Origin: an uncultured Chloroflexia bacterium
GTDB lineage: Bacteria; Chloroflexota; Limnocylindria; Limnocylindrales; CSP1-4
Assembly (NCBI GenBank): GCA_963768655.1
Contig: CAVYIM010000009.1
Coordinates: 160,001 to 224,000, forward strand
DNA: 64,000 nucleotides
Reading direction: 5' to 3'
The position numbers were made by a program, and so were the translations under genes. This document shows positions 2-37,605 of the stretch, in pieces (position 1 is the first letter of the stretch; each line of letters starts with the position of its first letter). Below the pieces are notes generated by a model that worked only from the letters and a program-made list of their open reading frames with translations, made no database searches and was not told the origin of the DNA.

Positions 2-1957
2 GACACGGGCACGGCGGCAAGCCAGGGCGCCCTCGACGCCGGCCATGTCTACCAACCAGGGACTTACCAGGTTCGAGTCGTGGTCCAGAACAGGGCCGGC
101 TGGTGGAGCGACGCCTTCTTCAACGTCACCCTGATCGACGACGGCCCGACGGTCGTGTTCGCCTCCGGCGACGTGTCGGCCGTGGAAGGCGTACCGGCCA
201 CTCTGGTCACGGGCTTCTACGATCCCGCGCCGGATGCCCCCTTCGCGGTCCACGTCGATTGGGGCGACGGAACCTCGCAGGACCTGTCCATTTCCGCCAT
301 CGGCCCGATCAGCCTGACCCACACCTACACGACGACGGGCCCGACGCTGCCCGGCGAGGACTACTTCGTCGACACGGCGACCGTGACCGTAACCGATGCC
401 CTCGGCGTCGTGGGGACGGGGAGCAAGGCCGTCTACGTCGTTGACGAAGCGCCGCTCGTTACGGCCTCGCCCAAGATCGTCATGACGGAGGGGCAGAGCT
501 CGCTCCTCACGCTGGCGACTTTCACCGATGCCAGCGCGGGACCGTGGACGGTCGACATCGGCTACGGCACACGCTGGGAAGTGGACGAGACGTTCCAGAC
601 ACCCGGTGACATCCAGCTCCAGTTCGGGGCCAACCCGGGCGACTACTCCATCCCGATTCTGGTCACGGACGTCGGCGGACAGGGGACTGAGGTCGCGGTC
701 GAGGTCGTCGTCCAGAACGTGGCGCCCGTCGTCTCGCCCGACCAGGTCCCGACCTCGACGAAGATCGGGCTCGCTGTGGCGCCGACCTACACGTTCGGCG
801 ACCCCGGCTACCAGATCGATGGTGAGACCTACACCTGCACGGTCGACTACGGTGACGGCGGCGGGCCTCAGGCCGGCGTTGTCGTCGGCCTCGAATGCCA
901 GGGCCCGGCGCACTCGTACGGCAAGGCGGGCACCTACACGCTGACTGCCCAGGTGGCCGACTCGAACGGGGGAGCTGGCACCTATTCGTCGACGCTGACG
1001 GTCGTGAACCCGGCGCCTGTCGTCGGCGCAATCTCAGCGCCCGATCAGGTGAACGAGGGATCGTCGGTGACCGCCTCGGCTGCCTTCACTCCGGCCAATT
1101 CACACGCTTCCTGCACGGTCGACTACGGCGAAGGCGCGGGGCCGGTGGCCGGGACGATCACCGGCTCGACGTGCCGGGGCCCAAATCACCTCTACGGTCG
1201 CCCGGGCACGTTCATGATCACCGTTGTCGTGACGGCTTCCTCTGGATCGTCGGGCTCGGCGACGAAATCGATCACGGTCGTGAACGTGGCGCCGACGGTG
1301 ACCTCGATCACCGCGACTCCCGGCGTTGCGACGATGGGTTCCTCGGTCAAGCTGTCACTCAAGTTCACTGATCCCGGCACCAGCGAGACCCACAGGGCCG
1401 TGGTGGACTGGGGCGACGGTGTCATCACGGTGATTGATCTCGGGTCCGCCACGAGGTCGCTCACCAGCACGCATGTCTTCGCGAAGGCCGGTCTATACCC
1501 GGTCTATGTGTATCTGACCGATTGGACGATCTGGATCTCCTCGACCCCTGGCGTCGTGGCCATCTACGACCCCAGTCGGTCCGTCTCCGGCTCGGGCTCG
1601 GTGCCCTCTCCCGCAGGCGCCTGCCAGCTCTCGTCGAAGTGCGGCGTCGCCTCGACGGCGACCTTCTCCCTGAGCGCGAAGTACGCCAAGGGGGCGACGA
1701 AGCCGACGGTGGCGCTGACGTTCTCGGCGGCTGGCTTCAGCCTTTCGGCAACAGGGGCCGACTGGTTCGTGGCAGCCGGCGGAACGGCGACGATCCAGGG
1801 CGCCGCAAAGGTCAACGGCGCGGCCGGATACACGTTCCAGCTAACAGCCATCGATGGCACGCCGGACTCTCTGCTGCTCCAGGTTTGGGACTCGAAGGGC
1901 GTCCTCGTCTACGAGAGCGGCGCGCCGCTGAAGTGCGGCTCCATCACGATCAAGTAG
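2..1957 (+). CDS. PKD/Ig-like repeat surface protein, 5' end outside the window
   Basis: Repeated PKD-like motifs (VDWGDG/VDYGDG, HxYxxxGTYTxT, VxNVAP). The frame is open back to base 2. Confidence 0.8.
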   Translation, partial: DTGTAASQGALDAGHVYQPGTYQVRVVVQNRAGWWSDAFFNVTLIDDGPTVVFASGDVSAVEGVPATLVTGFYDPAPDAPFAVHVDWGDGTSQDLSISAIGPISLTHTYTTTGPTLPGEDYFVDTATVTVTDALGVVGTGSKAVYVVDEAPLVTASPKIVMTEGQSSLLTLATFTDASAGPWTVDIGYGTRWEVDETFQTPGDIQLQFGANPGDYSIPILVTDVGGQGTEVAVEVVVQNVAPVVSPDQVPTSTKIGLAVAPTYTFGDPGYQIDGETYTCTVDYGDGGGPQAGVVVGLECQGPAHSYGKAGTYTLTAQVADSNGGAGTYSSTLTVVNPAPVVGAISAPDQVNEGSSVTASAAFTPANSHASCTVDYGEGAGPVAGTITGSTCRGPNHLYGRPGTFMITVVVTASSGSSGSATKSITVVNVAPTVTSITATPGVATMGSSVKLSLKFTDPGTSETHRAVVDWGDGVITVIDLGSATRSLTSTHVFAKAGLYPVYVYLTDWTIWISSTPGVVAIYDPSRSVSGSGSVPSPAGACQLSSKCGVASTATFSLSAKYAKGATKPTVALTFSAAGFSLSATGADWFVAAGGTATIQGAAKVNGAAGYTFQLTAIDGTPDSLLLQVWDSKGVLVYESGAPLKCGSITIK

Positions 1958-1975
1958 GGTTGGCGGCGGGCCGCG

Positions 1976-2539
1976 TCAGCGCCCGCCGGTGGCCCGCTCC
2001 AGAGCCAGCGTCTGCACGGCCAGGATCGTCATCGCGTCGACGATCTCGCCGCGGGCGATCATGGTCATGACCTCGTCGAACGGAACCCAGCGCAGCTGGA
2101 GCTGCTCCGTGCCTTCCGGCGAGGCCGGGCCTGCCTCGAGACCGGTGGCGACGAACAGGATCGTCACCTCGTCCGTGACCGAGTTGGACAGCTCCGCGCG
2201 GCAGATCTCGCGCCACGTCCCGCCGACGAAGCCGGTCTCTTCCGCCAGCTCGCGCCGGGCCGCCGCCTCGGGGATCTCGTCGAAGCTACCGCCGCCCTCC
2301 GGGATCTCCCAGGAGTAGTGGTTCATCGTGTAGCGGAACTGGCCCACGAGCAGAACCCGGTCGGTTGCGGTGTCGAGCGGCACGACGCCGATGGCCAGGT
2401 GCCGGAAATGGACCACGCCGTAGATCCCCGGCTTCCCATCGGGCCGAACGACATCGTCGTGCAGGACTTCGAGCCAGGGATTCTCATATGCGACGCGCCG
2501 AGAAACGCGCTGCCAGGGGTTGGACTCGGTCGAGCTCAT
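1976..2539 (-). CDS. NUDIX hydrolase (ADP-ribose pyrophosphatase-like)
   Basis: Nudix box GG..EIPEAAARRELAEETG and WEIPEG. ATG 2539 is preceded by TACCAT at 7 nt (leaderless-type). Confidence 0.9.
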   Translation of the reverse strand: MSSTESNPWQRVSRRVAYENPWLEVLHDDVVRPDGKPGIYGVVHFRHLAIGVVPLDTATDRVLLVGQFRYTMNHYSWEIPEGGGSFDEIPEAAARRELAEETGFVGGTWREICRAELSNSVTDEVTILFVATGLEAGPASPEGTEQLQLRWVPFDEVMTMIARGEIVDAMTILAVQTLALERATGGR

Positions 2540-2676
2540 GTGGCAAATGGTAGCGGGGCCGCCTCGCCGGCGCCGTCGCGCGCGGCGTCGCGGCGGGAAC
2601 CGGCGACTGGCTCTCGGCGTCTCAGCCATGTCCACGAGACAGCCGAAACCGACAGACACGCCGCCAGGGAGAAGAG

Positions 2677-3492
2677 ATGAACGACACACCGAACTACGCC
2701 TCGGCCGAACGGACCGAGTCCGCTGCCGAGGCCACCCACCGGCCCAAGTTCCTGACGGTCGGCGGAATCGTGGCCGCGACCGCGGCCTTCAGCCTGCTGG
2801 TCGGCATCGTCGCCGGGCCGATCATCGCCAACAGCCACGTTCAGGGCGCAGACCCGACGGGCACTCCTGAGCACACCATCACCGTGTCGGGCACGGGCGA
2901 CGTCAGCGTCGCCCCGGACGTGGCCGACGTGTATCTGGGCATCTCGGTCACCATGCCGACCGCGAAGGCCGCCCGCGACGCGGCGGCAACCTCCATGACG
3001 GCCGTCCTCGCGGCCGTGAAGCAGGACGGGGTGGCCGACAAGGACATCGTGACCACCAACGTCAGCCTGAACCCGGTCTACGACTACAGCTCCGGCGGCT
3101 CCTCGGGGAAGCTCACCGGCTACCAGTACACCAACACGGTCAAGGCCACCGTTCGCGACCTGACCAGAGTCCCGAACGTCCTCGACGACGCGGTCGCGGC
3201 CGGAGCGACCACAGTCCAGGGCATCTCGTTCCGTCTTGACGATCCCACCTCGGTCGACGCCCAGGCTCGCCAGCTGGCCATGGCCGACGCGAGAAGCAAG
3301 GCCAACGCGCTGGCGCAAGCGGCGGGCGTCTCCATCCAGGGCGTGGCCAGCATCAGCGAGGTCACTTCGAGCTCGCCGATCATCGAATACGCGCCCACGG
3401 CAAGCGTCGCCCAGAATTCGGTCTCGACGCCGATCCAGACCGGTACCACGGACATCTCGGTCCAGGTCACGGTCAGCTACCTGATTGGTTGA
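2677..3492 (+). CDS. SIMPL (DUF541) domain exported protein
   Basis: N-terminal TM segment, TITVSGTGDVSVAPD, ARQLAMADARSKA..LA and terminal VTVSY, all typical of SIMPL. Confidence 0.85.
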   Translation: MNDTPNYASAERTESAAEATHRPKFLTVGGIVAATAAFSLLVGIVAGPIIANSHVQGADPTGTPEHTITVSGTGDVSVAPDVADVYLGISVTMPTAKAARDAAATSMTAVLAAVKQDGVADKDIVTTNVSLNPVYDYSSGGSSGKLTGYQYTNTVKATVRDLTRVPNVLDDAVAAGATTVQGISFRLDDPTSVDAQARQLAMADARSKANALAQAAGVSIQGVASISEVTSSSPIIEYAPTASVAQNSVSTPIQTGTTDISVQVTVSYLIG

Positions 3493-23102: not shown

Positions 23103-24350
23103 TCAGGGTCTGGCGACCAGTGGCGAGGGCTCCGCCAACCCGGCGATGACGCGCCGCGTCTCCCGCGCGATCATGCGCTCCTCGTTCGTCGGGATGAGCA
23201 ACACCCGCACGCGACTGGAATCGGTAGCGAGGTCGACCGCCCGCCCCCGCTCGTTCGCGTTCTTCGTCGCGTCCAGCTCCACGCCGAGAAACCCGAGATC
23301 GCGGCACGCGCGTTCCCGCACGACGGGGCTGTTCTCGCCGATGCCGGCAGTGAATACGATCGCGTCGAGGCCGCCCATGGCCGCGGCGTAGGCGCCGACG
23401 TACTTGCGGATGCGATAGCAGAAGACCTCCAGCGCCAGCACCGCCCTCGCGTGGCCCCTGGCGGCGGCCTCCTCGATGTCGCGCATGTCGCTCGACAGCC
23501 CGGACATCCCCTGCAGACCGCTTTCCTTGTTGATGATCCGGTCGATGTCCGAGACCGAGGCGTCTAGCCGGCGGGCGAGGTACACGAGGATGGCCGGATC
23601 GAGGTCGCCCGAGCGCGTGCCCATGACGAGGCCCTCGGCCGGGGTCAGCCCCATGCTCGTGTCGACGACGCGGCCGCCCTGGATGGCGGCCATGCTGCAG
23701 CCGTTGCCGAGGTGGCATGTGACGATCCGAGATGCCTCCCGCGAGACCCCGTTCTTGGCGAGCATGTCGAGGGCGATGCCGGTCACGTACTGGTGGGACG
23801 TGCCGTGGAACCCGTATCGCCGCACGCCGAAGGCCGTGTAGTAGTCATAGGGGAGCGCGTACATGTATGCGTAGTCGGGGATCGTGGCGTGAAATGCGGT
23901 GTCGAACACGGCCACTTGTGGAATGCCCGGCAAGAGCTTCAGGCAGGCACGAATGCCGTCGAGATTGGGTGGGTTGTGGAGTGGCGCGAGCTGGCTCACC
24001 TTCTCGATTTCCTCGACGACGTCGTCGGTGATGAGCGTCGGCAGGACGAACTTCTCGCCCCCGTGGACGACCCGATGCCCAACCGCGACGATCTCGTCGA
24101 CCCGCTCCACGACGCCCCTCTCAGGGTCGGTGAGCAGCGCGAACACGCGGCGCATCGCCTCGTCGTGACAGTCCATCTCGGCGTCGAACGCGACCTTCCC
24201 ATCGCGCTTCGTCTCCTGGATGATCCGGCCCTGTCGCTGGGCGACACCGACGCACTCGGCAATCCCCTTCGCGACGACCTCCTCAGTCTCTGCGTCGATG
24301 AGCTGGTACTTGAGCGACGAGCTACCGCTGTTTAGGACGAGGATCTTCAT
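23103..24350 (-). CDS. ackA: Acetate kinase
   Basis: LVLNSGSSSLKY, GHRVVHGG, APLHN, RYGFHGTSH, HLGNG, TAGIGEN and TNEE. Confidence 0.97.
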   Translation of the reverse strand: MKILVLNSGSSSLKYQLIDAETEEVVAKGIAECVGVAQRQGRIIQETKRDGKVAFDAEMDCHDEAMRRVFALLTDPERGVVERVDEIVAVGHRVVHGGEKFVLPTLITDDVVEEIEKVSQLAPLHNPPNLDGIRACLKLLPGIPQVAVFDTAFHATIPDYAYMYALPYDYYTAFGVRRYGFHGTSHQYVTGIALDMLAKNGVSREASRIVTCHLGNGCSMAAIQGGRVVDTSMGLTPAEGLVMGTRSGDLDPAILVYLARRLDASVSDIDRIINKESGLQGMSGLSSDMRDIEEAAARGHARAVLALEVFCYRIRKYVGAYAAAMGGLDAIVFTAGIGENSPVVRERACRDLGFLGVELDATKNANERGRAVDLATDSSRVRVLLIPTNEERMIARETRRVIAGLAEPSPLVARP

Positions 24351-24446
24351 TCGGTGTTCTACCGCCTGTCCTGCTGCTGACCTTCACCCGGTCCAGTCCG
24401 CGTCTGCGCGAGCCGCCTCCGGGGCCGGATCGCTTCCACGGGGTCG

Positions 24447-25451
24447 CTAGTTGTTCGTGGCCTGGGCGGCCGTGATGGCGGCCACGTTCACGATGTCGAC
24501 CGCGTCGCACCCCCGCGAGAGGTCGTTCACCGGGCTGCACAGGCCCTGGAGGACGGGGCCGAACGCCTTGGCCCTGGCGAGCCGCTCCGTGAGCTTGTAG
24601 GCGATGTTCCCGGAGTTGAGGTCCGGGAAGATGAGCACGTTCGCCTTCCCGGCTACGGGGCTGCAGGGTGCCTTCTTCTTGCCGATCCAATCGACGAGGG
24701 CGGCGTCGGCCTGAAGCTCGCCGTCGAGAGCGATATCCGGGCGTCGTTCCTTCGCGATCCGGGTCGCCTCGACGACTTTGTCGACGATCGGGTCCCTGGC
24801 ACTGCCCTTGGTCGATAGCGAGAGCATCGCGACGCGCGGCTCGAACCCGAGGAGGGTCCGCATGGTGTCCGCGCTCTGGATCGCGATCTCCGCGAGCTGC
24901 TCGGCGTTGGGGTTGATCACCAGGCCGCAGTCGGCGTAGATGAACGCGCCCTCCTCGCCGTACTCGCAGTCCGGAACGATCATGACGAAGAAGGCCGAGA
25001 CCAGCCCGCAGTTGGGTGCCGTGCCGAGGACCTGGAGGGCCGGCCGGATGGTGTCGGCCGTGGAGTGTGTCGCCCCCGAGACCTGCCCATCGGCCTCGCC
25101 CTCGTGGACCATGAGGCAGCCGAAGAACAGCGGGTCGAGGACGAGCTGAGCCGCCTTCTCTTCCGTCATCCCCTTGTGCCGGCGGAGATCGAGGAGCGTG
25201 TCGGCGAACCGGTCTCGTTCTGGCGCGACGGCGGGGTCGACGATCCGGCACCGGCTGATGTCCGCCCCGGCCTCCTTGGCGGCGGCTTCGATCTTCCAGA
25301 GCGGGCTCACGAGGACGACCTCGGCCAGGCCCTCCCGGACGATTCGCTCGGCCGCGGTCACTGTCCGAACGTCGTCGGCCTCCGGCAGCACGACGGTCTT
25401 GTGCCCCGCGCGTGCGCGCGCGTAAACGGTTTCCATGACGTTGGACGTCAT
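24447..25451 (-). CDS. pta: Phosphate acetyltransferase
   Basis: VLPE..DVR, DGELQADAA, NVLIFPDLNSGNIAYK and GPVLQG..PVNDLSRG. Confidence 0.95.
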   Translation of the reverse strand: MTSNVMETVYARARAGHKTVVLPEADDVRTVTAAERIVREGLAEVVLVSPLWKIEAAAKEAGADISRCRIVDPAVAPERDRFADTLLDLRRHKGMTEEKAAQLVLDPLFFGCLMVHEGEADGQVSGATHSTADTIRPALQVLGTAPNCGLVSAFFVMIVPDCEYGEEGAFIYADCGLVINPNAEQLAEIAIQSADTMRTLLGFEPRVAMLSLSTKGSARDPIVDKVVEATRIAKERRPDIALDGELQADAALVDWIGKKKAPCSPVAGKANVLIFPDLNSGNIAYKLTERLARAKAFGPVLQGLCSPVNDLSRGCDAVDIVNVAAITAAQATNN

Positions 25452-25725
25452 CTTCAAGACCACTCCTGGTGCAGTTGTGTCGTTCGCGCGTAAAGGCGCG
25501 GGAGTCGGGCGCCGCGGACGCCGCCGACATGGGGTGAGGCGCCGCGAGAGCCCGCAGCGGTATTAGTCGGAGCTTCCTCGATTGGGCTCCACGGCGAGTA
25601 GAGCCAATGGGCGCGCGATGCGGGCCGGAAGTCCCGTGCCTGTTGGACGGGCAGGGGGCCGAAAGACCGGATCCTCGACCACGCGGCTCCGTCTTGTGGC
25701 GCCCGGGGCCTCTGAAAGGCGGCGC

Positions 25726-26765: not shown

Positions 26766-28868
26766 TTGTCGAAAAAGCGCGACTTGCGGCTCCACGCCAG
26801 CTGGCTTCTGGCGTCGCCGCTCGCGCTGATCCTGCTCGTTCTGGCGGTTAGCAGCGCCGCCGCGCACCACTCGCCGGGCCACCTGTCCGATCCGTCCGTT
26901 TCCCCGCGCGAGGTCGCCGCAGGCGGGACGGTCGTCCTGGCAGTGACCTTCACCGACGACACCGGCGCCGCGCCGAGAGCGGTGACGGTGTCGGTGGATG
27001 GCGCGGCCTCATCGATGACCGCCGATGCCGACTCGTTCAAGACGGGCGTGCGCTACGAAACCAGGGTTGCGCCGGCCGCCGGTCGGCATGCCATCGTCTT
27101 CAGCGTGACCGACGCAACTGGCGACCGGGAATTCCTTGCGGCGGGTTATGTCCAGGTCAAGGGCAGCGACGGCCCGGGACCCAGCGCCGACCCCACGGCC
27201 GCTCCGACCCGGTCGCCCAGGCCCGAACCGACCGCCAGGTGCACACCCGCTGTCACGCCGGCTGGCGGTGGCCGAGGGACGGGCGGCACCGACAAGAGCG
27301 ACACTGGCGATGGCCCCGGCGGCGCAACGCCGGCCCCGGCCGTGACTCCGGCCGCAGACGCCACGCCGGTCCCAGGCAGCACGCCGGCCCCGGACGCAGC
27401 TTCCCCCGATCCCACCAACGCAGGCCAGACTGAATGGCCCGGTACCGGAACCACCAGCGGGTCGGGTGTCGGCAAGCCGGCCGGCCCGGAGGGGCCGATC
27501 TCGACGGCGGATCCCAGCCCCGGTGACGGCCGGACGATGGGCCCGGCCACCGGGTTGACCGACGAGAACAACGTCGCCGGCGGAGACGTCGAGGAGTCGC
27601 AGGGCGCGATCCTCCCGGTCGATGGCCAGTCGCGCATCGATCTGCTGGCCCGGTACCACGCCTCGCTGCCGACGATGCTGGTCGAGATGGTCCCGACCAT
27701 CGTCACCGCGACCACCGGCGGGCTGGCCTGGGCCGCATTTGTGATCTTCGGCAAGCGTCGTCGGGACGGAGAGAATTCCGAGCCCGATCCGCTTCTGGCC
27801 ACAGCTGCGGCCACCGGTGTCGAGACGGGCGCCGCGCAGGGCCTGCGAGCCGTCGACGAGTCGCAGCTGCCGCGCTGGCGGCGACCCTCACTGCAGCAGG
27901 TCCGCAGGACCGACCCGCTTCGAGTCGTCGCCGACGCGCCGACCATGTCCTTCGCCAAGGCTGGCGTCCGGCCGCTGGAGAGCTACGAGCGCCGCCAGAT
28001 CCGCTATCGCCTGGTTCGGCTGCTGAACTGCCCCGACGAGGTCCGCGCCTCCGAGATCGGCGTCCTCGATCGCGGCGACGAAGTCCAGCTTCTGGAGCGG
28101 CATGGCGTCTACTGGCGAGTTCTGTGCCCGGACGGACGAACCGGCTGGGTCCACCGGATGACCCTTGCGGCTCCGGCTTCGGAATCCGCGTCTGAAGCGG
28201 TCGAGCCGGAGATTCGCCTGGCGCTCGAGCCCCCTTGCGAGCCGGTTGAGACGCCGGTCGCGCCAGCAGCCGCGGCGCCGGCGGAGAACGTCGACGGCCT
28301 CCTGGAGGCATACATGCGAGCCCGGAGCGACGTCTTGCACTCGGCCGGGGAGGTCGAGGCGGTCGGGTTCGAGGCAGGCCCGATCGTCGAAGCGCCGGTC
28401 GAGCCGGTCGAGCCGGTCGAGCCGGCCCAGCCGGCCGAGGCGACCGAGCCGGTCGAGCCGGAGACGAGCGAAATCGAGCCCGCCCCCGCGACCGCGCCCG
28501 GGCGCGCAGCTACGCCCGCGCCCGCCATGGGGCTGTCGGTCGCCGCGCTGGCTCGCGACTATCTGGAACGAGCCGGGTTCGCCGTCGTGAGTCCCGAGAC
28601 GGCAGCCCAGCCCGCGGTCGGGCCCCTTGTCGAACCGGTGATCGAGCCCGCCGTCGAGGTACCGGCCGAACCGGCGATCGAGCCGGTTGCGGGACCCGCG
28701 GTCGACGCGGCGACTACTCCCGCCGTCCCCGCGCCGTCGAGCGACGCGGCTCCTTCCGCAGAACGAGAACGTGCTGATGGGCGATATTCGGGACGTAAGA
28801 GCGCGGGTAGCCGTAAGGCCTCAACCGAGTCCCGGCCTGGTACCAGATCACGTCGCCCTTCGCGGTGA
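26766..28868 (+). CDS. Exported/membrane protein: signal peptide, low-complexity linker, TM segment, SH3-like domain, acidic Pro-rich tail
   Basis: GGAGGT SD before TTG 26766. LDRGDEVQLLER..YWRVLCPDGRTGWVH is SH3b-like. Confidence 0.65.
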   Translation: MSKKRDLRLHASWLLASPLALILLVLAVSSAAAHHSPGHLSDPSVSPREVAAGGTVVLAVTFTDDTGAAPRAVTVSVDGAASSMTADADSFKTGVRYETRVAPAAGRHAIVFSVTDATGDREFLAAGYVQVKGSDGPGPSADPTAAPTRSPRPEPTARCTPAVTPAGGGRGTGGTDKSDTGDGPGGATPAPAVTPAADATPVPGSTPAPDAASPDPTNAGQTEWPGTGTTSGSGVGKPAGPEGPISTADPSPGDGRTMGPATGLTDENNVAGGDVEESQGAILPVDGQSRIDLLARYHASLPTMLVEMVPTIVTATTGGLAWAAFVIFGKRRRDGENSEPDPLLATAAATGVETGAAQGLRAVDESQLPRWRRPSLQQVRRTDPLRVVADAPTMSFAKAGVRPLESYERRQIRYRLVRLLNCPDEVRASEIGVLDRGDEVQLLERHGVYWRVLCPDGRTGWVHRMTLAAPASESASEAVEPEIRLALEPPCEPVETPVAPAAAAPAENVDGLLEAYMRARSDVLHSAGEVEAVGFEAGPIVEAPVEPVEPVEPAQPAEATEPVEPETSEIEPAPATAPGRAATPAPAMGLSVAALARDYLERAGFAVVSPETAAQPAVGPLVEPVIEPAVEVPAEPAIEPVAGPAVDAATTPAVPAPSSDAAPSAERERADGRYSGRKSAGSRKASTESRPGTRSRRPSR

Positions 28869-29643
28869 AGCCGGCGCGCGTCGCGCGCTCGGCCAGGTCC
28901 GCTCCGGTGAAGATGTAGCGCCCGTCCTGGTAGGCATCCCGGACGATCACGGCCGCGTAACGCTCTGGGCGGAGGACGCGCGCGAGATGCGAGAAGACGC
29001 TCTCCATTCGGTCGAGGAACGTCCCATAGTCGGCGCTGTTGGCCAGGTCGCCCGGATGATCCGTGACCATCGAGTAGTCGGTCCGGCGGTTGGCGTGACT
29101 CTCGGCCAGCTTTCCGCCGACCATCGTGATCGGCAGCTGGATGTTGTAGGGCGGGTCGGTCGCGACGAAGTCGACGCTTTCGGCCTCCATCTCGGGCAGG
29201 AGGAGCATGGCGTCGCCCAGGCGCATCCGCAGCCCCGAGGGGTCGAACGTCCGCTCGCCGCCCGGGTCGTTGGGGCCGATGTCGGCCACTACTGGCCCGC
29301 GCCCGCCACGCTCCGCCGCCAGGCTGCTCAGAAGCGATTCGTAGACCGCGACCCAGCGGGCCTCGATCTCGATCCCGATCGCACGCCTGGGACCGCGTGC
29401 GATGGCCGCCCCGATCAGCGTCCCGCCGACCCCTGCGAACGGGTCCAGGACGAGCTCTCCGCTGGTGGTGAAGAACTCGATCAAACGGGCCATGAGCCGC
29501 GGCGGCTTGTTTGCACCGTGCTGTCTTCGGAGATCGTGTCCGAGCTCGGATGGATAGGCCGTTCCCCACACGGACTTGGTGAAGTACAGCCACTCCTCGC
29601 CGGAGAGCTCGTTGAGGGTGTTGTCAGGGTGCCTGGGGCTCAT
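28714..29643 (-). CDS. DNA amino-methyltransferase (N6-adenine or N4-cytosine), orphan
   Basis: [11 protein letters not shown] (SAM-binding) followed by DFVATDPPY (catalytic). TGCTAGGCT-6nt-ATG start. No endonuclease adjacent. Confidence 0.85.
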
Positions 29644-29792: not shown

Positions 29793-32700
29793 ATGACGAA
29801 CAGCATCGAGCGGAGCGGCGGACGCGGCTTCGACGGGCGCTCCTCGCACCGCAGGCTCTGGAGCGACCGATTCGTCGGACGCGAGCGCCCGCTGGAGCGA
29901 ATAGCCGTCGGGCTGCAGAGCGTGGCCGACGGCCGGCCCAACGCGCTCATCCTGTCAGGCACCGCGGGCCTGGGTTTGACGCGACTCCTGGCCGAGACGG
30001 AGCGGCGCATCGGCGCGCTCGCGGATCCGTTCGCGGCCGTCCACGGGGTCGCCATGCCGGCCACGTCGGGCGTGCCCTATGCCCCGATCAGCGCGGCGCT
30101 GGAGCGTTTGCTCGAGCCGGTTCCCGATGAGACGCTGGCGGCGCTGGTTGGCCCGACGGGCGACGCGATCGCCCGGCTGGTGCCGAGCCTCCGGCCACGC
30201 CTGGCGGCTTTGGAACTGCTGCGCCAGCGGCCTCGCGTCGTGGCCACCGAGTGGCGCGAGGCGCGCATGCTGGAGGCAGTCCTCGGATTGCTGGAGCGTC
30301 TCGGCGAGCGCCAGCCGGTGGCGCTGCTGCTGGAGGACATGCACTACTCGGATGCCGCAACCCGCAGCCTGGCCACGTTCCTGGCGCGGGTCTCGCGGGG
30401 CCAGCGGGTCATGCTGGTCCTGACATACCAGCCCGACCGGTTGTTGCGATCCGATCCGTTGCGGGCGACGCTGGCATCTCTCGTGACGACGCCGTCCGTC
30501 GTCAACGCCGAGGTCGGGCCGCTGGACCGCGCCGAACTGGGCCAGCTCATCGAGGCTATCGAAGGCGGGCGGCCCTCGTCCACGACCCTGCTGCTGGTCG
30601 CCGAGCGGTCGCGCGGCAACCCGCTCGTCGCCGAGGAGTTGCTCGCGGCCAGGCGCGAGCTCTCCGGTGTCTCTCTGGCGGGCTCGTTCGAGCGGCTCGT
30701 GACCGCTCGTTCTTCGCTCCGCTCCCCTGAGTGCCGCCGGGTGCTGCGGCTTCTATCCCTGACCGGCGAGCCGGTCACGCGGCCGATGCTCATGGCTATG
30801 GCCACGGAGTTCGAGCGTCGGGCGCCCTCAAGACCGCCGCGGTCGACGAGCGGTGGGCGGAAGAGTGACAGCCTGGACGGAGACATCGCCGCCGGCGCGG
30901 CCGAGGGACTCGAACATGGGTTCCTGGTCGAGGTGGCCGACGGGCGGCTCACCGCGGATGGTCGCGAGCGGCGGATCTGGTTCCGCCACGAGTTGATCGC
31001 GGAAGCGATCGCCACCGATCTGCTGCCGGCCACGAGGCGGCGCTACCATGCGGCGCTGGCCGCGGCCGGGCGAGGCGATCCAGCGTCCGACGCCCCGTCC
31101 GCCGGCACGCCGATGGGGCTGCCGTCTCGCGAATACATCCGTTCGAGACCCGTTCCTCGGCCTTCCGCGTCATCAACCGCGGAGGCGGCCCCACGGGATC
31201 CGGTCGCAGCCATTCCTCCGCAGCCGGCAGCCGCTCTGGCGCATTACTTCGCCGCCCACCAGCTGGCCGAGGCGGAGCAGGCAGCGCTGGCCGCGGCGGC
31301 GGCGGCCGAAGCTCTCGACGCCGGAGCGGACGCGCTCGCCCACTACGAAAAGGCCCTCGCCCTCTACGAGATCGTACGTCTGGGAGAAGACGTGCCGCCT
31401 CTGTCCGACCTCTACGTTCGGGCCGCCGAAGCTGCCTTCGCCGCCGGCGACCCGGCTCGCGCCTCGGCCTACTGCGAGGCCGCCGCGGCCGCACTGGACG
31501 ATCCCCACGAGCGTCTTGCCCTCGGCCTGGTGATGGAGCAGCTGGGCCGCTACCGCCGCGCCTCGGGCGACCAGGAGGGATCGCTCGCGGCCTACAAGCG
31601 GGCCGTCGATCTCGTCCCGCGCGAGCCGACCGCGGCTCGGGCCCGCGTCCTCGGCTCGCTGGCCCAGTTCCGGATGCTCGAGGGCGTCTTCTCGGAAGCG
31701 AGGAGATACGCGCAGGAAGCGGTTGCGGTGGCGATCGAGGTCGGCGAGGAGGCTCGCCAGGAACTCCTCCACGCCACTTGCACGCTGGCGGTGGCCCAGG
31801 CCTGGGGGGAAGAGCCCGAACCGGCCGTCGAGATGCTGCGCCAGACACTGGTCGACGCCGCGGCGCTGGGGCGGCTCGACGACCTGTTCCGGGTGTACGC
31901 CAACCTCACCACCGTCCTGGACCTGCTCGGTCGCCGCGAGGAGGCGATCGCGATGGCCTACGAAGGGATCGCCGAAGCCGAGCGGGAAGGCCAGGCCACG
32001 GTGTACGGCAACTTCCTGCGGGCCAACGCCTCCGAATCCCTGTACTTCATGGGCCGCTGGCCCGAGTGCCGCCGTCTCTGTCTGGACGCTCTGAGCTGGA
32101 ACCCGGTGGGCATCTGGTTCCTCTCGCCGCTCCTTAATCTCGCGACGGTCGAAGTCGCCATGAGCGCGGGCGAGTCTGCCGGCAGACTGCTCGGGCAGCT
32201 CCTGCTGGCGCTCGAAACCGTCCAGGATCCGCAGTTCGCCGTGCCGGCCCAGCAGACGGCGGCTGCGTATGCGCTGTGGCAGGAGGACCTCGCGGATGCC
32301 CGCCGGGCGGCGGAGCGTGGCTGGCAGAAGGTCAGCGACACCGAGGACTGGCTGCTGATGGCACGCATGGCATCGACCTGCCTCGAGGTCGACGCCACCA
32401 TTGCCGAGGACGCCCACCGCCGCCGCGACTTCGCCTCACTCGCGGCTGCCCGCGAGCGAAGCCTCCCGATCGTTCTTCAGGCGGAGGCAGTCGTGAAGGG
32501 CTGCGGCGTTCCGACGAGGTTCGGGTCTCGCCGGCAGGCGGATCTGGCGATCCGGGTGGCCAGGGCGTTCCGGGCGCGAATTGAGGGTCACGACGATCCG
32601 GCTACGTGGACGCAGCTCGCCGCCGACTGGGCCGAGCTGGGAGATCCGTATGAAGCCGCCCGCGCCCACTGGCGGGAGGCCGAAGCTCTCCTCGATCGAG

Positions 32701-33278
32701 CCCGCGGCCGCTCCACTCGGACCGCGGCTCGCGATCCGCTCAGCGCCGCCGCGGAAGGCGCCTACGGCCTGGGGGCGTGGCCGCTGCTAAGGGCCGTTGC
32801 CGAGCTGTCGCGGCGGGCCATGCTGCCTCTCCCCAAGCACATCGAGGCGGCCCTGGAGGGTCGGCTCGAGCCCCTCGCCGCTCCCACCCGGTCGATCGCC
32901 ACCCGGCCCGGAGCCCCTGCCCGGCCCGCGGTTCCGTCACTGGCAAGCCGTGGTGGCGCGACGGGACAGGGCGCCGGCCAGGGCGCGGGCGGATCGGCCG
33001 GCGCGGCCGCGCCCCGCTGGGAGTCGGGCTTCGTGGCCGACTTCGCCGCCTCGGCGGTCCAGCAGGCGCAACACGACTTCGGCCTCAGCAAGCGCGAGCT
33101 CGAGGTCCTGGCACTGATCGCCGAGGGGCGCAGCAATCCGGAGATCGGCCGGCAGCTGTACATCACGCGCAAGACGGTGGCCGTGCACGTGAGCAACATC
33201 CTGACCAAGCTCGGCGTGTCGGGACGGGTCGAGGCGGCCGCCGCCGCGATCAGGCTGGGACTGACCGAGAGCGCGTAG
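29793..33278 (+). CDS. STAND/MalT-like regulator: AAA ATPase + TPR-like + LuxR HTH
   Basis: FVGRE, Walker A region GTAGLGLT, Walker B LLLEDMH, RSRGNPL, WFRHEL, and C-terminal [37 protein letters not shown]. Confidence 0.93.
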
Positions 33279-33369
33279 GGCGGCGGCACCGAGGGCTCGC
33301 TTCGGTGGCCCGCGGGTCTCCCGCGATGTCGCTCAGCGCCTCCGCCGCCGGCGCCGTCCGACGGACACA

Positions 33370-33400
33370 AAGAAACCCGGACTCAGTGTCCGGGTTTCTT
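33370..33400. terminator. Bidirectional intrinsic terminator
   Basis: 13-bp perfect stem AAGAAACCCGGAC-tcagt-GTCCGGGTTTCTT, U-rich on both strands. Confidence 0.85.
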
Positions 33401-33414
33401 GCGGCGTATCCGAC

Positions 33415-33483
33415 CTACCAGCGCTTGCCCCAAATGATCACGACAAACGCCAGGAGGAACGGAGCCAGATCCGTGAAGTCCAC
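33415..33483 (-). CDS. 22-aa hydrophobic small protein MDFTDLAPFLLAFVVIIWGKRW
   Basis: AAAGGAG SD 6 nt before GTG, TAG stop, then a terminator. Upstream promoter-like motif. Too short for the ORF track. Confidence 0.7.
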   Translation of the reverse strand: MDFTDLAPFLLAFVVIIWGKRW

Positions 33484-33548
33484 AGTCGACTCCTTTGTCT
33501 GCTCTCCCCCTTGGGAAGTTGCCACGCAGGCCGTGTGCAGCGTCGGTA

Positions 33549-33595
33549 ACCATATCCCTTTCTGGCCAAGATTCTCAATCGCTCATCCGTACGGA
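33549..33595 (-). promoter_or_regulatory. Sigma70-like promoter for the small ORF, with an upstream palindrome
   Basis: TTGAGA (33578-33573), N18, TATGGT (33554-33549). Perfect palindrome TCCGTACGGA at 33586-33595. Confidence 0.5.
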
Positions 33596-33799
33596 GGGTA
33601 CCGACCGGACCCGGGGCCGGGTACTGCCAGGTCCCGAGCCGAATGGGGCAAGGGTTATTCCCTAGAGGTTCCGCGGGATCCTGGGCTTCTTCCCGATCTT
33701 CGGGTCGTCCGGCCGGTGAGCCTGACCCTACACTTCGGCCAGCGGACCAGAGCCGGCGCCGCGCGGCACGGCCCTGCTCGCACCTCGAGGTGACGTGGC

Positions 33800-34486
33800 G
33801 TGCCGACCGACGTCCAGTTCCAGCTCGACATCTCGACGCGGCTCCTCGTGGCCGCAGGCTTTGGGGCGATGATCGGCCTGGAGCGCGAGATCCACGGCCA
33901 CCAGGCGGGTGTGCGAACGCACATGCTCGTGTCGCTGGGCTCCGCGATATTCACCGTGCTATCTATCTACGGCTTCCACGCGGTCGCGGGAACCGGCAGC
34001 GTCGACCCGAGTCGCATCTCGGCCCAGATCGTGACCGGCATCGGCTTCCTGGGCGCGGGTGCGATCGTTAAGTTCGGGACCAACGTCCGCGGCCTGACCA
34101 CCGCTGCCAGCCTGTGGGTCGTGGCCGCCGTCGGTCTGGCCGCCGGAACCGGCTGGTACTTTGTGGCCGCGGTTGGCACCGCGCTGGCGATGCTGTCGCT
34201 GTGGCCCGTCCATCGTCTGGTTGCCAAACTCGAGCTGTCCGGTGGGCGCGTCGTCCGGGTTCGCCTCAATCTCAGGAAGCTGGACCTCTTCGCCGGCGTC
34301 TCGCAGATCCTTCTGTCCAACCGGGTGGAAATAGTGAGCGTCCAGAGCGAGAAGACGAAGGGGGGCCACTTCATGGACCTGGAGCTCCGGCTGCCGGTTG
34401 GGGGGCTGGACCACAAGATCCTTTCGGAGCTTGGACAGATGAGGGATGTCGAGGTGGAGACGATCGCGGCGGTCGAAGAGGCCTGA
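33800..34486 (+). CDS. MgtC/SapB family membrane protein
   Basis: IGLERE..AGVRTHMLV, DPSRISAQIVTGIGFLGAG and VRGLTTAASLW, plus an ACT-like C-terminus. Confidence 0.92.
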   Translation: MPTDVQFQLDISTRLLVAAGFGAMIGLEREIHGHQAGVRTHMLVSLGSAIFTVLSIYGFHAVAGTGSVDPSRISAQIVTGIGFLGAGAIVKFGTNVRGLTTAASLWVVAAVGLAAGTGWYFVAAVGTALAMLSLWPVHRLVAKLELSGGRVVRVRLNLRKLDLFAGVSQILLSNRVEIVSVQSEKTKGGHFMDLELRLPVGGLDHKILSELGQMRDVEVETIAAVEEA

Positions 34487-34497
34487 GCCCGCGGCGG

Positions 34498-37400
34498 TCA
34501 GTCGGCCGATTTCTCCGATGCCGCGGGCTTCCCGGGCCGTGCAGCCAGAGCCGCATCCACGGCCGAGATCAGCGACTCGGACGTGAAGGGCTTGGCCAGG
34601 AAGTCTATCCCTGCGTCCAGGACGCCGTCGCGGACGATGCCCTTGTCCGTGTGGCCCGACATGTAGAGGACCCGGAGGCCGGGCTGGGAGGCGGAGAGCC
34701 GCGTGGCCACGTCGCGGCCGCTCATGCCGGGCATGATCACGTCGGTGAGGAGCAGCTCCACGGCGGTGTCGCGCGCCGCCTCGATGGCCGCCGAGCCGTC
34801 CTGGGCGGTCAGGACCCGGTAGCCGGCCGTCTCCAGGACGCGGCTCGCGAATCGTCTGACGCCGCTGTCGTCCTCGACGACGAGGATCGTGGCCGTCCTC
34901 GCGGCGCCGGTCGTCGCGGCCCGCGGTGCCTCCGGGCTGGCGGCGCTGGTCCTCTCGACGCGCGGCAGGTAGACGGTGAACGTCGACCCGTTGCCCGGTT
35001 TGCTTCGAGCGGAGACCGTTCCCCCGGACTGTTGAACGATGCCGTAGACCGTTGCCAGCCCGAGGCCCGTGCCCTTGCCCGGGCCCTTCGTAGTGAAGAA
35101 TGGCTCGAAGAGGTGGTCCAGGGTGTCGGCATCCATGCCCGTGCCCGTGTCCGTCACCGACAGCGTGGTCATTCTTGCCGGCAGCTCGGCGCCGGCCTGT
35201 GACTCGACGGTCGGGGTCGAGTCCAGGTCGGCGATCTCGATCGTCAACGTGCCGCCGTCGGGCATGGCGTCGCTGGCATTCACCGCAAGGTTGAGGATCA
35301 CCTGCTCGATCTGACCCGGGTCCGCCAGGACGCAGCCGGTGCCATCCGGGACGACTGTCAGCAGCCGGACGTCCTCGCCGATGAGTCGACCCAGCATCGG
35401 CTCCAAACGCCGGACGACCTCGCCCAGATCGACCACCTCCGGTTGCAGGACAGTCCTTCGAGCAAACGCCAGGAGCTGGCGGGTCAGCCTCGCGGCGCGA
35501 TCCGCGGCCTGCTCTATCTGCTCCAGGTCTTCGCGCGGCCCTTCGCCTGGCGGAAGCTCGGCCAGGGCGAGGCTGGCGCTGCCGCGGATGGCGGTCAGGA
35601 GGTTGTTGAAATCGTGGGCGATGCCGCCGGCGAGACGGCCGATGCCCTCCATCTTCTGGGCCTGGCGCAGCTGCTGCTCGAGTTCGGCTCGCTCGGCATC
35701 CGCCTGGCGCCGTTCGCTGACGTCGCGGGCGATGCTCAGGATGGCCTTGCGGCCGCCCAGGTCGATGACGGTGGCGCTGACCTCGACCGGGATGGCGACC
35801 CCGTCTCGTCGAACGTGCGCCGTTTCGAAGAAGGCCGAGTGCTGGCTGGTGAGCGCTTGTTCGCGGATCGGGACGAGGGCGGCGAACTCCGGCGCATCTA
35901 TGTCGGTCGGCCCCATGGCCAGGAGCTCTTCGCGGCTGTAGCCGAGCCGCTCACAGGCGGTGCGATTGACCTCTACGAACTTGCCGCCGATGTCGTGGAT
36001 GAAGATCGCGTCGTTGGCGAAGTCGAAGAGCGACCGGAAACGCTCCTCCGACTGCCGGAGGGCCTGCTCCGCGCCATAGCGGTCGGAGATATCCAGGCCG
36101 GCGGTGACCAATCCGATGATCTCCCCGCCCTTGGATCGGAGTGGGGCTTTGGTCAGTAGCTGGCGCCGCACAGTCCCGTCGGGGAAGGCCATGTCGGCCT
36201 CGTACGTGTGCGCCGTCCCGTCCGCCAGGATCTCGCGGTCGCGGTCGGCGTGTACCGCCGCGTCGGGCTGGCCGAGCTCACCGATCGTCTTGCCGATGAT
36301 CTCTTCGCGGGGCCGGCCCGGACCGGCCGCGAACGCGGTGTTGCAGAGCTCCAGCCGGCCATCCACGTTCTTGGCGTTGATCGGGAAAGGCAGGGCGTCG
36401 AGCAGCTCCTGCATGAAACGCGCCTGCTCGCGCAGCGCCTCCTCGGACCGGCGGCGCTCGGTGATGTCGCGATGGACGGATAGGATCGCCGGCTCGCCGC
36501 GGTACTCTACTCGCCGCGCCACCACCTCGATGGGAACCTCTATGCCATCGCGCCGCAGGTGCGTGGTTTCGAACACGAGCAGCCCAACTTGCATCATTCG
36601 CTCGATGCGTTCGGGGATCAGAGACGCCATCTCAGCCGTATTGATGTCGCCGATGGTCATCCCCAGGAGCTGCTCGCGGGTGTAGCCGAGGCGCTCGCAC
36701 AGGACCCGGTTGACCTCCAGAAAGGGGCCGGCCGGGTTGTGGATTGCTGCGCCGTCGCCGATGCTGTCGAAGACGGTTCGGAACTCAGCTTCCGATCGGC
36801 GTGCGGCCTCGTCGATCTCGTGCCGCACCGATATGTCGCGCACCGACGAGACGACGCCCACGATCTCGCCACCGGCGTTCCGGTGCGGCCGGTTGGTCTG
36901 GACGACCCAGCCGCGTCGGCCCGTGCGAGAGATCACGTACTCGAACTCGCGCGACGTGGGCGACTCGCCGGCAAGGGCTCTCTCCAGGTCCTCGCCGACG
37001 CCCGTCGCCATGACTTCGGGGAACGCTTCACGGGCTTCTCTTCCGAGAACATGGTCAGCGGCCAGTCCCGTCAGCTCCTCCATGACCGGATTCCAGACGA
37101 CATACCGAAGGTCGCCGTCGTAGACGATGATCCCCTCGCCGGCGCTGGCAATGATCGTCTCGACGAACGCGTTCCGCTCGCGAGTGGCGGCCTCGGCGCG
37201 CCGGCTGGACGTGACGTCCTCGATCATCGCCATGATCCACGTTGGCCCCACGCGCGAGAGGCGGACGAGCACCGTGCGGTCGGTCGTCGCGTCGTGCCCC
37301 TCGAATTCCTCCGGTTGACCGCTCGATGTGACCCGGCGCGCCCGTTCGATCAGCTCCGGCCTGAGTTCGGGTCTGACCTCCAGAGCCCGCAGCCCGAGGA

Positions 37401-37605
37401 GCTGCTCGGCCTTCTGGCCGGTCAACCTCTCGAAGGCGGGGTTGACGTCGATTATGCGGTAGTCGGCCGGCATCCCGGCTTCGTCGCGCAGCGTCTCGGC
37501 GATGGCGACGGCGGTCGACATCTGTTCGAACAGCATCGAATGGATGTCCGCGGATGCGGGTGCGTCGTCCTCAGGGCACCCGTCGGAACGGTCTGCGTCC
37601 GCCAC
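34498..37605 (-). CDS. Hybrid sensor histidine kinase (about 5 PAS domains + HisKA + HATPase + receiver)
   Basis: [38 protein letters not shown], and receiver [15 protein letters not shown]. Confidence 0.95.

Follow-up and report, generated by a model that had tools for sequence, protein, structure and literature searches.

A conserved micro-protein gene convergent with a STAND-LuxR regulator in Limnocylindria, with candidate operators at its promoter

Introduction

Peptide–receptor pairs such as SHP/Rgg, ComS/ComR, Phr/Rap and PapR/PlcR have receptors built with TPR domains, and the signals of the known pairs diversify. Promoters under MalT carry repeated boxes just upstream of a weak -35. 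The locus described here, a gene of 22 codons in a 64,000-nucleotide stretch of DNA (hereafter the window; positions 160,001 to 224,000 of contig CAVYIM010000009.1, assembly GCA_963768655.1, from an uncultured Chloroflexia bacterium), shares traits with both and lies beside the gene of a large STAND-LuxR regulator. The review PMC12648545 describes two further points of comparison, namely small membrane proteins that modulate larger ones (MgtR, MgtS, KdpF and similar) and the Klebsiella rmpA-rmpD-rmpC locus, in which a LuxR-like regulator controls the gene of a small protein.

No part of bacterial genomes is charted as poorly as their small proteins, and for the uncultured Chloroflexota of soil and peat the chart is nearly blank. 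A sequence-only reading of the window had singled out the 22-codon gene and proposed that its product is the output or ligand of the adjacent regulator, an MgtR-like partner of the divergent MgtC, or a type I toxin. We tentatively favour the reading, which we hold at somewhat short of an even chance, that the STAND-LuxR regulator switches on the gene and that the product is a micro-protein associated with the membrane. This reading is ranked first and makes use of the promoter, the synteny and the hydrophobic segment of the peptide.

A small transcription unit with a conserved reading frame

The peptide gene, the signals that surround it and the convergent regulator gene occupy the following positions in the window.

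33415..33483, minus strand: small open reading frame (ORF) MDFTDLAPFLLAFVVIIWGKRW, 22 codons, with GTG start at 33483-33481 and TAG stop at 33417-33415
33488..33495, minus strand: Shine-Dalgarno (SD) sequence AAGGAGTC, 4 nt ahead of the start codon
near 33542, minus strand: predicted transcription start, implying a 5' untranslated region of ~59 nt
33549..33578, minus strand: promoter-like site TTGAGA-18 nt-TATGGT, with -35 at 33578-33573 and -10 at 33554-33549
33370..33400, no strand assigned: 13-bp hairpin AAGAAACCCGGAC-ACTGA-GTCCGGGTTTCTT flanked by an A-tract and a T-tract, a putative bidirectional terminator common to the peptide gene and the convergent LuxR gene
29793..33278, plus strand: STAND-LuxR regulator of 1161 residues (AAA_16 + TPR + GerE), convergent with the peptide gene

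The promoter, SD, ORF and terminator hairpin of the minus-strand unit proposed by the sequence-only reading are thus all present at the site, and by this arrangement the peptide gene is a separate transcription unit with its own promoter and terminator. A promoter scan of 33200-33900 returned one sigma-70-like site, where shuffled sequence would be expected to give 0.1. The hairpin lies 14 nt past the peptide stop and 92 nt past the LuxR stop (33278), and was missed by a simple terminator scan because its T-run sits within the stem. The 13 bp named by the sequence-only reading are present. In 20 loci, 12 consensus pairs of the hairpin are nearly invariant, with compensatory changes at one pair in 3 of them.

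Conservation was examined in genomes that are metagenome bins throughout, those of the same genus being, by their named records, Chloroflexota assemblies of Candidatus Limnocylindrales/Limnocylindria. Loci within the genus are not independent of each other, and the two samples used below, of 20 loci and of 41 records, share some genomes. A DNA search of 61 genomes, including the window's own, gave matches in 29 of the 36 other genomes of the genus and in 0 of the 24 from a second genus of the order; most of the matching alignments cover only the SD, ORF and hairpin, which form the conserved part of the intergenic region. In all 20 fetched genus loci the ORF is intact with a GTG or ATG start, the product ends in G-[KR]-R-W plus 0-2 residues, and a TAG stop is followed by the hairpin. 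The SD reads [AG]AGGAGT[CT] in every one of these loci, and its spacer is 4 nt long except in one locus, where it is 5 nt. The second sample of 41 named records yielded 34 evaluable loci that reach the 3' flank of the regulator, and the ORF is present in all 34 (31 by profile, 3 by eye), in one case 1.35 kb off, beyond an insertion. A conserved ORF and SD in relatives, which the earlier reading had set as a check on itself, are therefore found in 20/20 and 34/34 loci.

The ORF in the genus has 5, 9, 16, 18, 21-23, 27 or 31-33 codons. Alleles differ in length by in-frame changes only, and none of the genus loci examined carries a broken frame, so that the frame-disrupting variation which would have spoken against a gene is missing from the orthologous regions. 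Even the shortest alleles, M-G-K-R-W (L151) and MLVIKGRRW (L160), retain the SD, start, stop and hairpin. The motif codons show synonymous variants (GGC/GGT/GGG, AAG/AAA and CGC/CGT), and other genera encode these residues by different codons and differ in the stop codon too. Among ten 22-codon alleles, the proportions of nonsynonymous and synonymous differences (pN and pS) are 0.22 and 0.31 overall, 0.013 and 0.10 for the Leu-Ala-Pro and GKRW codons, and 0.32 and 0.41 for the remaining codons of the ORF; for comparison, the 3'-terminal 200 codons of the LuxR gene give pN 0.17 and pS 0.58 in these 10 loci. The core of the peptide changes fast yet stays hydrophobic, and its ends are strongly constrained. 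Taken with the invariant frame, these patterns indicate that the ORF is a real conserved gene, apparently translated and selected in this frame.

A peptide family of Limnocylindria

Several homologues of the regulator are followed downstream, on the opposite strand, by ORFs whose products have 32-34 residues and end in G-[KRTW]-R-W. A profile of the peptide matched 55 of the 151 genomes of the bacterial family, in 24 of 49 genera. Counted over the class, 55 of 301 genomes matched (49/91 in family f1, 4/103 in f4, 1/92 in f3 and 0/12 in f2), and outside the class the profile matched 1 of ~355 genomes of the phylum. Among 1.84 billion representative proteins, 20 match the profile; they span 29-73 residues, often with the start miscalled upstream, and wherever they carry a name (5 of the 18 listed members) it is 'hypothetical protein'. 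Pfam and NCBIfam hold no family for the 22-residue form or for six relatives of 31-33 residues, Rfam has no match in 32800-34300, and a protein atlas returned only unnamed clusters at 0.87-0.89, under the meaningful level. The earlier reading expected an undescribed module in this lineage, and by these databases the peptide is undescribed, the sources saying only 'hypothetical protein'. The family is new, and by the spread of the profile matches it is nearly restricted to the class Limnocylindria (Chloroflexota).

The usual member has ~32 residues, a basic N-terminus of net charge +2 to +5, and a near-invariant C-terminal G-x-R-W. The uncharged run in the relatives of 31-34 residues measures 13-20 residues, mostly 15-19, which is enough for one membrane span. 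The form in the window has an N-terminal charge of -1 and an uncharged run of 14, and judged against these relatives it is a derived, shortened form that lacks the basic N-terminus.

Two subfamilies can be told apart. Type A, of the pattern ..RAWR..LAP/GP..AIAL..AG[KR]RW, is linked to the regulator and includes the copy in the window. Type B, ..QAFRVLLALSALASSALVLEAG[KRQ]RWF, is found directly 3' of a gene for a DUF5317 membrane protein, on the same strand, in 7 of 20 loci (L167, L169, L172, L175, L177, L179 and L181, with the peptide at ~3001-3100 in each), and six more such loci were recognized by eye. A GAF-GGDEF-EAL gene stands upstream in L169 and L171, and this neighbourhood hints at a link of type B to cyclic di-GMP signalling. 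A search of the literature gave nothing that names DUF5317 or joins Limnocylindria with LuxR, and among the matches listed no paper on a pair of peptide and regulator like the present one.

The window's own genome carries the peptide gene in single copy and has no type B gene; its one DUF5317 domain (C3:203096-203536, minus strand) is fused to a transporter-like membrane domain in a frame of 613 codons. In L081 (G077), two type A genes in tandem (302523-302615 and 302280-302369) precede the convergent regulator, the second with a GTAC-box promoter of its own (see below) and the first with no GTAC box seen before it. Tandem pairs of peptide genes also occur in L172 and L175. The sole match outside the class, L186 2995-3141 (minus strand), is a small ORF ending ..GAGTKWG, situated just 5' of a same-strand gene (1580-2914, minus strand) for a multi-pass membrane protein with an HD_5/HD domain.

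The regulator and the promoter

The regulator has AAA_16 (residues 26-209), TPR_12 (617-686) and GerE (1098-1150) domains, giving it the N-terminal P-loop nucleoside triphosphatase (NTPase), helical-repeat sensor and C-terminal LuxR/GerE helix-turn-helix (HTH) of the MalT/LAL activators. A model of the C-terminal 760 residues of a homologue (pLDDT, the predicted local distance difference test score, 82.6) consists of helical repeats over ~475 residues, a disordered linker and the HTH. Its best matches in the PDB are TPR superhelices, for example those of LGN/Pins, OGT and Ctr9. The modelled architecture is what a STAND switch like MalT or the LAL proteins would have; the TPR matches are generic for the fold and point to no specific ligand. 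The HTH segment is nearly invariant among homologues.

Homologues of the regulator (~50% identity) are present in 145 of the 151 family genomes. The peptide and regulator genes are convergent and adjacent in 20/20 and 7/7 genus loci. For the other genera, coordinates were compared by hand in 50 peptide-bearing genomes, and in 23 of these the peptide gene lies within 1 kb of a LuxR homologue and convergent with it; the convergent pair recurs in one locus each of two more families of the class (L173 and L174). By these counts the STAND-LuxR gene is the commonest and most constant neighbour of the peptide gene. Synteny with the regulator versus mgtC had also been set as a check, and it backs the regulator link and not the mgtC link.

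Upstream of the peptide gene, the following elements were noted.

33587..33594, minus strand: GTAC box CCGTACGG, near -48 from the predicted start (box 3)
33597..33602, minus strand: GTAC box GGTACC, near -58 (box 2)
33619..33626, minus strand: GTAC box CAGTACCC, near -80
33638..33648, minus strand: motif CCCCATTCGGC, ~12 nt upstream of the distal GTAC box
33586..33595, minus strand: palindrome TCCGTACGGA, read in the sequence
33651..33663, minus strand: AGGG-N5-CCCT, just upstream of the CCCCATTCGGC motif

The last two are the palindromes pointed out by the sequence-only reading, and both were found where it had placed them. The -35 block GCGATTGAG is conserved across the genus loci, the GTAC boxes are conserved in the genus loci and across genera, and the CCCCATTCGGC motif can be recognized by eye in most genus loci, with or without mgtC. 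Other genera and type B genes have 1-4 GTAC boxes at an equal distance; in the other genera these often stand beside a poor -35, ahead of a TAnnnT -10. A GTAC occurs between -180 and -60 in 29 of 30 loci versus 109 of 624 control windows (17%), and two or more occur in 20 of the 30 versus 12 of the 624. The architecture is that of an activator-dependent promoter.

Scored with a matrix that combines box 2, box 3 and the -35, this promoter reaches 49 and the next-best site in the 3.37-Mb assembly 15.5; on this measure the promoter is unique in its own genome. The two next-best look-alikes, C9:4112 and C8:92009, were read and rejected, with nothing comparable downstream. The former partially matches box 3 plus the -35 and is followed by no clear gene, and the latter is GGTACC-N4-AGTACC upstream of an ORF resembling zinc-type alcohol dehydrogenases.

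Mechanism and alternative explanations

We hypothesize that the STAND-LuxR protein, once its sensor is triggered, would bind the candidate GTAC boxes and, when bound, would activate this one gene. The synteny and the nearly invariant HTH point to the adjacent protein as the probable activator. The peptide, through its GKRW end and its hydrophobic segment, would then act on some partner in the membrane or at its surface.

Several observations weigh against this account. The 14-residue uncharged run and acidic N-terminus of the window form suit a membrane span poorly, and the alleles of 5, 9, 16 and 18 residues are too short for one. The link to the regulator is not obligate, as outside the genus 27 of the 50 genomes with a peptide gene do not have it adjacent to a LuxR homologue: in 2 the distance is 2.5-3.8 kb with two-component genes between, in 5 (of one genus) it is 17-31 kb, in 2 it exceeds 100 kb, and in 18 the two genes are on different contigs or the position is not known. 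Conversely, the ~1 kb around a LuxR homologue holds no peptide gene at 10 of 18 evaluable loci (a count that leaves out L070) and, in a second sample, at 16 of 20; some of these homologues may be paralogues. Type B genes sit behind DUF5317 genes and not beside a LuxR gene. Lastly, within the genus the Leu-Ala-Pro and GKRW codons vary unusually little at silent sites when set beside the LuxR gene, a sign of an extra constraint at the RNA level.

In the first alternative, the TPR sensor of the regulator takes the peptide, or only its GKRW end, as its ligand, and the two form a peptide–receptor circuit like SHP/Rgg, ComS/ComR or Phr/Rap. This is unlikely in our estimate, although it best explains why only G-x-R-W is indispensable: the C-terminal motif alone is invariant, and in-frame shortening as far as M-G-K-R-W keeps it. 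By eye, the 32-residue forms resemble a signal peptide, with a basic n-region, a hydrophobic h-region and often A-x-A or L-x-A, followed by 4-5 residues. The TPR superhelix is long, its best PDB matches include the peptide-binding TPR domains of LGN/Pins, and the two genes are adjacent across genera. Against a ligand, the motif is identical across three families, unlike a diversifying signal, and the loci examined have no exporter, processing protease or oligopeptide permease as a conserved neighbour. A basic n-region is missing from the genus forms, whose residue ahead of the G (W, L, M or Q) is unsuited to signal peptidase, a paralogous subfamily lies behind DUF5317 genes and not beside a receptor, and the TPR matches are generic for the fold. 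A predicted complex of the homologue's C-terminal 760 residues with its own 32-residue peptide scored 0.27 (mark 0.32, controls not folded) and gives no verdict for or against the pairing. Of the earlier proposal of 'ligand or output', the output part fits the synteny and the conserved promoter, and nothing here shows a ligand.

A bolder version of the ligand idea, and one to which we give a smaller chance still, holds that a G-K-R-W(-x) tetra- or pentapeptide is the active entity, coming from a signal-peptide-like precursor or from a 5-codon allele and sensed by the TPR sensor. If true, this would be the first STAND switch of transcription that senses a peptide, and the Chloroflexota would have a peptide signalling system of their own.

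A second alternative, improbable in our judgement, is a translated cis-acting RNA, in which translation of the mini-ORF would set the balance between termination and read-through into luxR antisense and thereby control the regulator. The transcript does fold better than shuffled sequences (z = -4.2). Codons 11-14 can form a 12-bp helix with the GKRW codons that stays paired in 85% of cells versus 32-48% when slid, and the RNAalifold consensus pairs GGAGUC of the SD with GGCUCC of the Leu-Ala-Pro codons; these two helices could be the source of the silent-site constraint. The pairing that the sequence-only reading had suggested, of the SD region GACAAAGGAG with CTCCT..TTTGTC, is absent from both the minimum-free-energy fold and the RNAalifold consensus. 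The 5- and 9-codon alleles keep the SD, start, GKRW, stop and hairpin, and in 42 of 42 parsed genus loci the stop is TAG or TAA, 13-19 nt ahead of the hairpin, versus TGA in 650 of 1075 long ORFs of the window's own genome; this stop-codon count is weak because the loci of one genus are not independent.

The cis-RNA explanation best accounts for the conservation of silent sites within the genus, but it fails outside it: there the stop codon, the distance to the hairpin and the nucleotides vary while the residues stay. A covariance model of the SD-ORF-hairpin block found the full element confined to the genus, and its matches in other genera were terminator-only or empty on inspection. Covariation in the helix is weak (3 double changes, equalled by 24-41 of 500 shuffles), the core stays hydrophobic in most alleles despite its pN of 0.32, and type B copies are operon-like and have no convergent gene. 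A related idea, arrest at the stop codon, drew on the constant TAG and was weakened because other genera use TAA, TAG and TGA.

A type I toxin, that is, a membrane-damaging hydrophobic peptide held in check by antisense RNA and mRNA structure, would account for the small hydrophobic product with its basic aromatic end, for the structure predicted around the SD, and for the tandem copies in one genome. The earlier suggestion of such a toxin nonetheless fared badly and is very unlikely to be correct. The gene is single-copy here and holds a fixed chromosomal position across the bacterial family rather than being on mobile DNA; its strong SD is conserved, and even alleles as short as 5-18 residues retain the frame. 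A sequence scan of 33200-33900 gave no promoter-like site on the plus strand, where an antisense unit would be sought, and the peptide has no match in Pfam, NCBIfam or Rfam, PADLOC not having been searched.

Flanking genes

33800..34486, plus strand: mgtC, 228 residues, divergent from the peptide gene, a variable neighbour outside the unit

An MgtR-like partnership with the divergent MgtC, also put forward by the sequence-only reading, is the least credible explanation and as a general function close to refuted by genome comparison: a divergent mgtC adjoins the peptide gene here and in 6 more loci of the genus, and small hydrophobic peptides that bind MgtC or control Mg2+ transporters are described in PMC12648545, but 13 of the 20 genus loci lack an adjacent mgtC, it is beside the peptide gene in none of the other genera examined, and an MgtC-family gene (PF02308) was found in 0 of 5 peptide-bearing genomes without adjacent mgtC, at completeness 73-94%. 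The MgtC neighbour is, on this distribution, incidental.

The gene on this side varies across genera and may be mgtC, pntB, a histidine kinase gene, an AlaX-like gene or a cupredoxin gene, the AlaX-like gene often being divergent in other genera and families. In the 20 genus loci the upstream gene is mgtC in 7, same-strand pntB in 9 and a hybrid histidine kinase gene in 3, and is not resolved in 1. Despite those 9 loci, a link to pntB was dropped because other genera carry different neighbours. In the window, a gene for a hybrid PAS histidine kinase (34498-37605, minus strand) and mgtC lie between the pntAA-pntAB-pntB operon (40862-37866, minus strand) and the peptide gene; compared with many genomes of the same genus, the kinase gene and mgtC look inserted there. 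On the far side of the regulator gene and divergent from it is a gene of the N6/N4 DNA methylase family (28714-29643, minus strand), and genes for acetate kinase and phosphotransacetylase lie within 23103-25463 (minus strand).

Comparison with known systems

The locus offers a micro-protein family with a recognizable signature, a conserved promoter with candidate operators, and a conserved large signal-transducing regulator adjoining, and this compact regulator–operator–output module lends itself to reconstruction in a laboratory host. Should the regulator control only this gene, the pair would make a clean model of STAND/MalT-type switches beyond the Proteobacteria and Actinobacteria; feedback of the peptide on the regulator, if it occurs, would amount to a new form of peptide signalling. 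The case of mgtC also illustrates that adjacency in a single genome can mislead.

Set beside MgtR, MgtS and KdpF as described in PMC12648545, the family resembles them in having ~30 residues and one hydrophobic segment with charged ends, in having been missed by annotation, and in being encoded beside a regulator gene, as theirs often are beside a regulator or target gene. It shows no sequence relation to them (no Pfam/NCBIfam match) and differs in its constant neighbour, which is a cytoplasmic STAND-LuxR protein and not a transporter, in its invariant C-terminal G-x-R-W, and in keeping alleles below the length of a membrane span. According to the same review, Klebsiella rmpA-rmpD-rmpC likewise has a LuxR-type regulator beside a small protein gene, and there the small protein is the output of the regulator. 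That locus is one operon with a small regulator, whereas the present pair is convergent, with an NTPase-TPR-HTH protein of 1161 residues as regulator; the two are unrelated in sequence.

With type I toxins (Ldr, Fst, Hok and TisB) the gene has in common a short hydrophobic product and a structured mRNA leader. Unlike them it is a single copy at a fixed syntenic site with no antisense unit seen, and it maintains a strong conserved SD and very short alleles.

As generally described, SHP/Rgg, ComS/ComR, Phr/Rap and PapR/PlcR are similar to our locus in that the precursor is hydrophobic, very short and conserved at its C-terminal end, in a peptide gene that adjoins the gene of a TPR transcription factor, and in a promoter with a conserved operator. 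The short precursor gene beside a TPR transcription factor, by which RRNPP-like systems are recognized, is indeed found here. The receptor in our case would carry a STAND NTPase and a GerE-type HTH, the motif is not diversifying, export and import genes are not linked, and the host belongs to the Chloroflexota and not to the Firmicutes. The closest match for the regulator itself is with the MalT/LAL activators, with which it shares the domain order and a candidate target promoter that has repeated boxes just upstream of a weak -35. It differs from MalT in that the boxes have a GTAC core and are not MalT boxes, and in that the sole candidate target in its own genome is the 22-codon gene.

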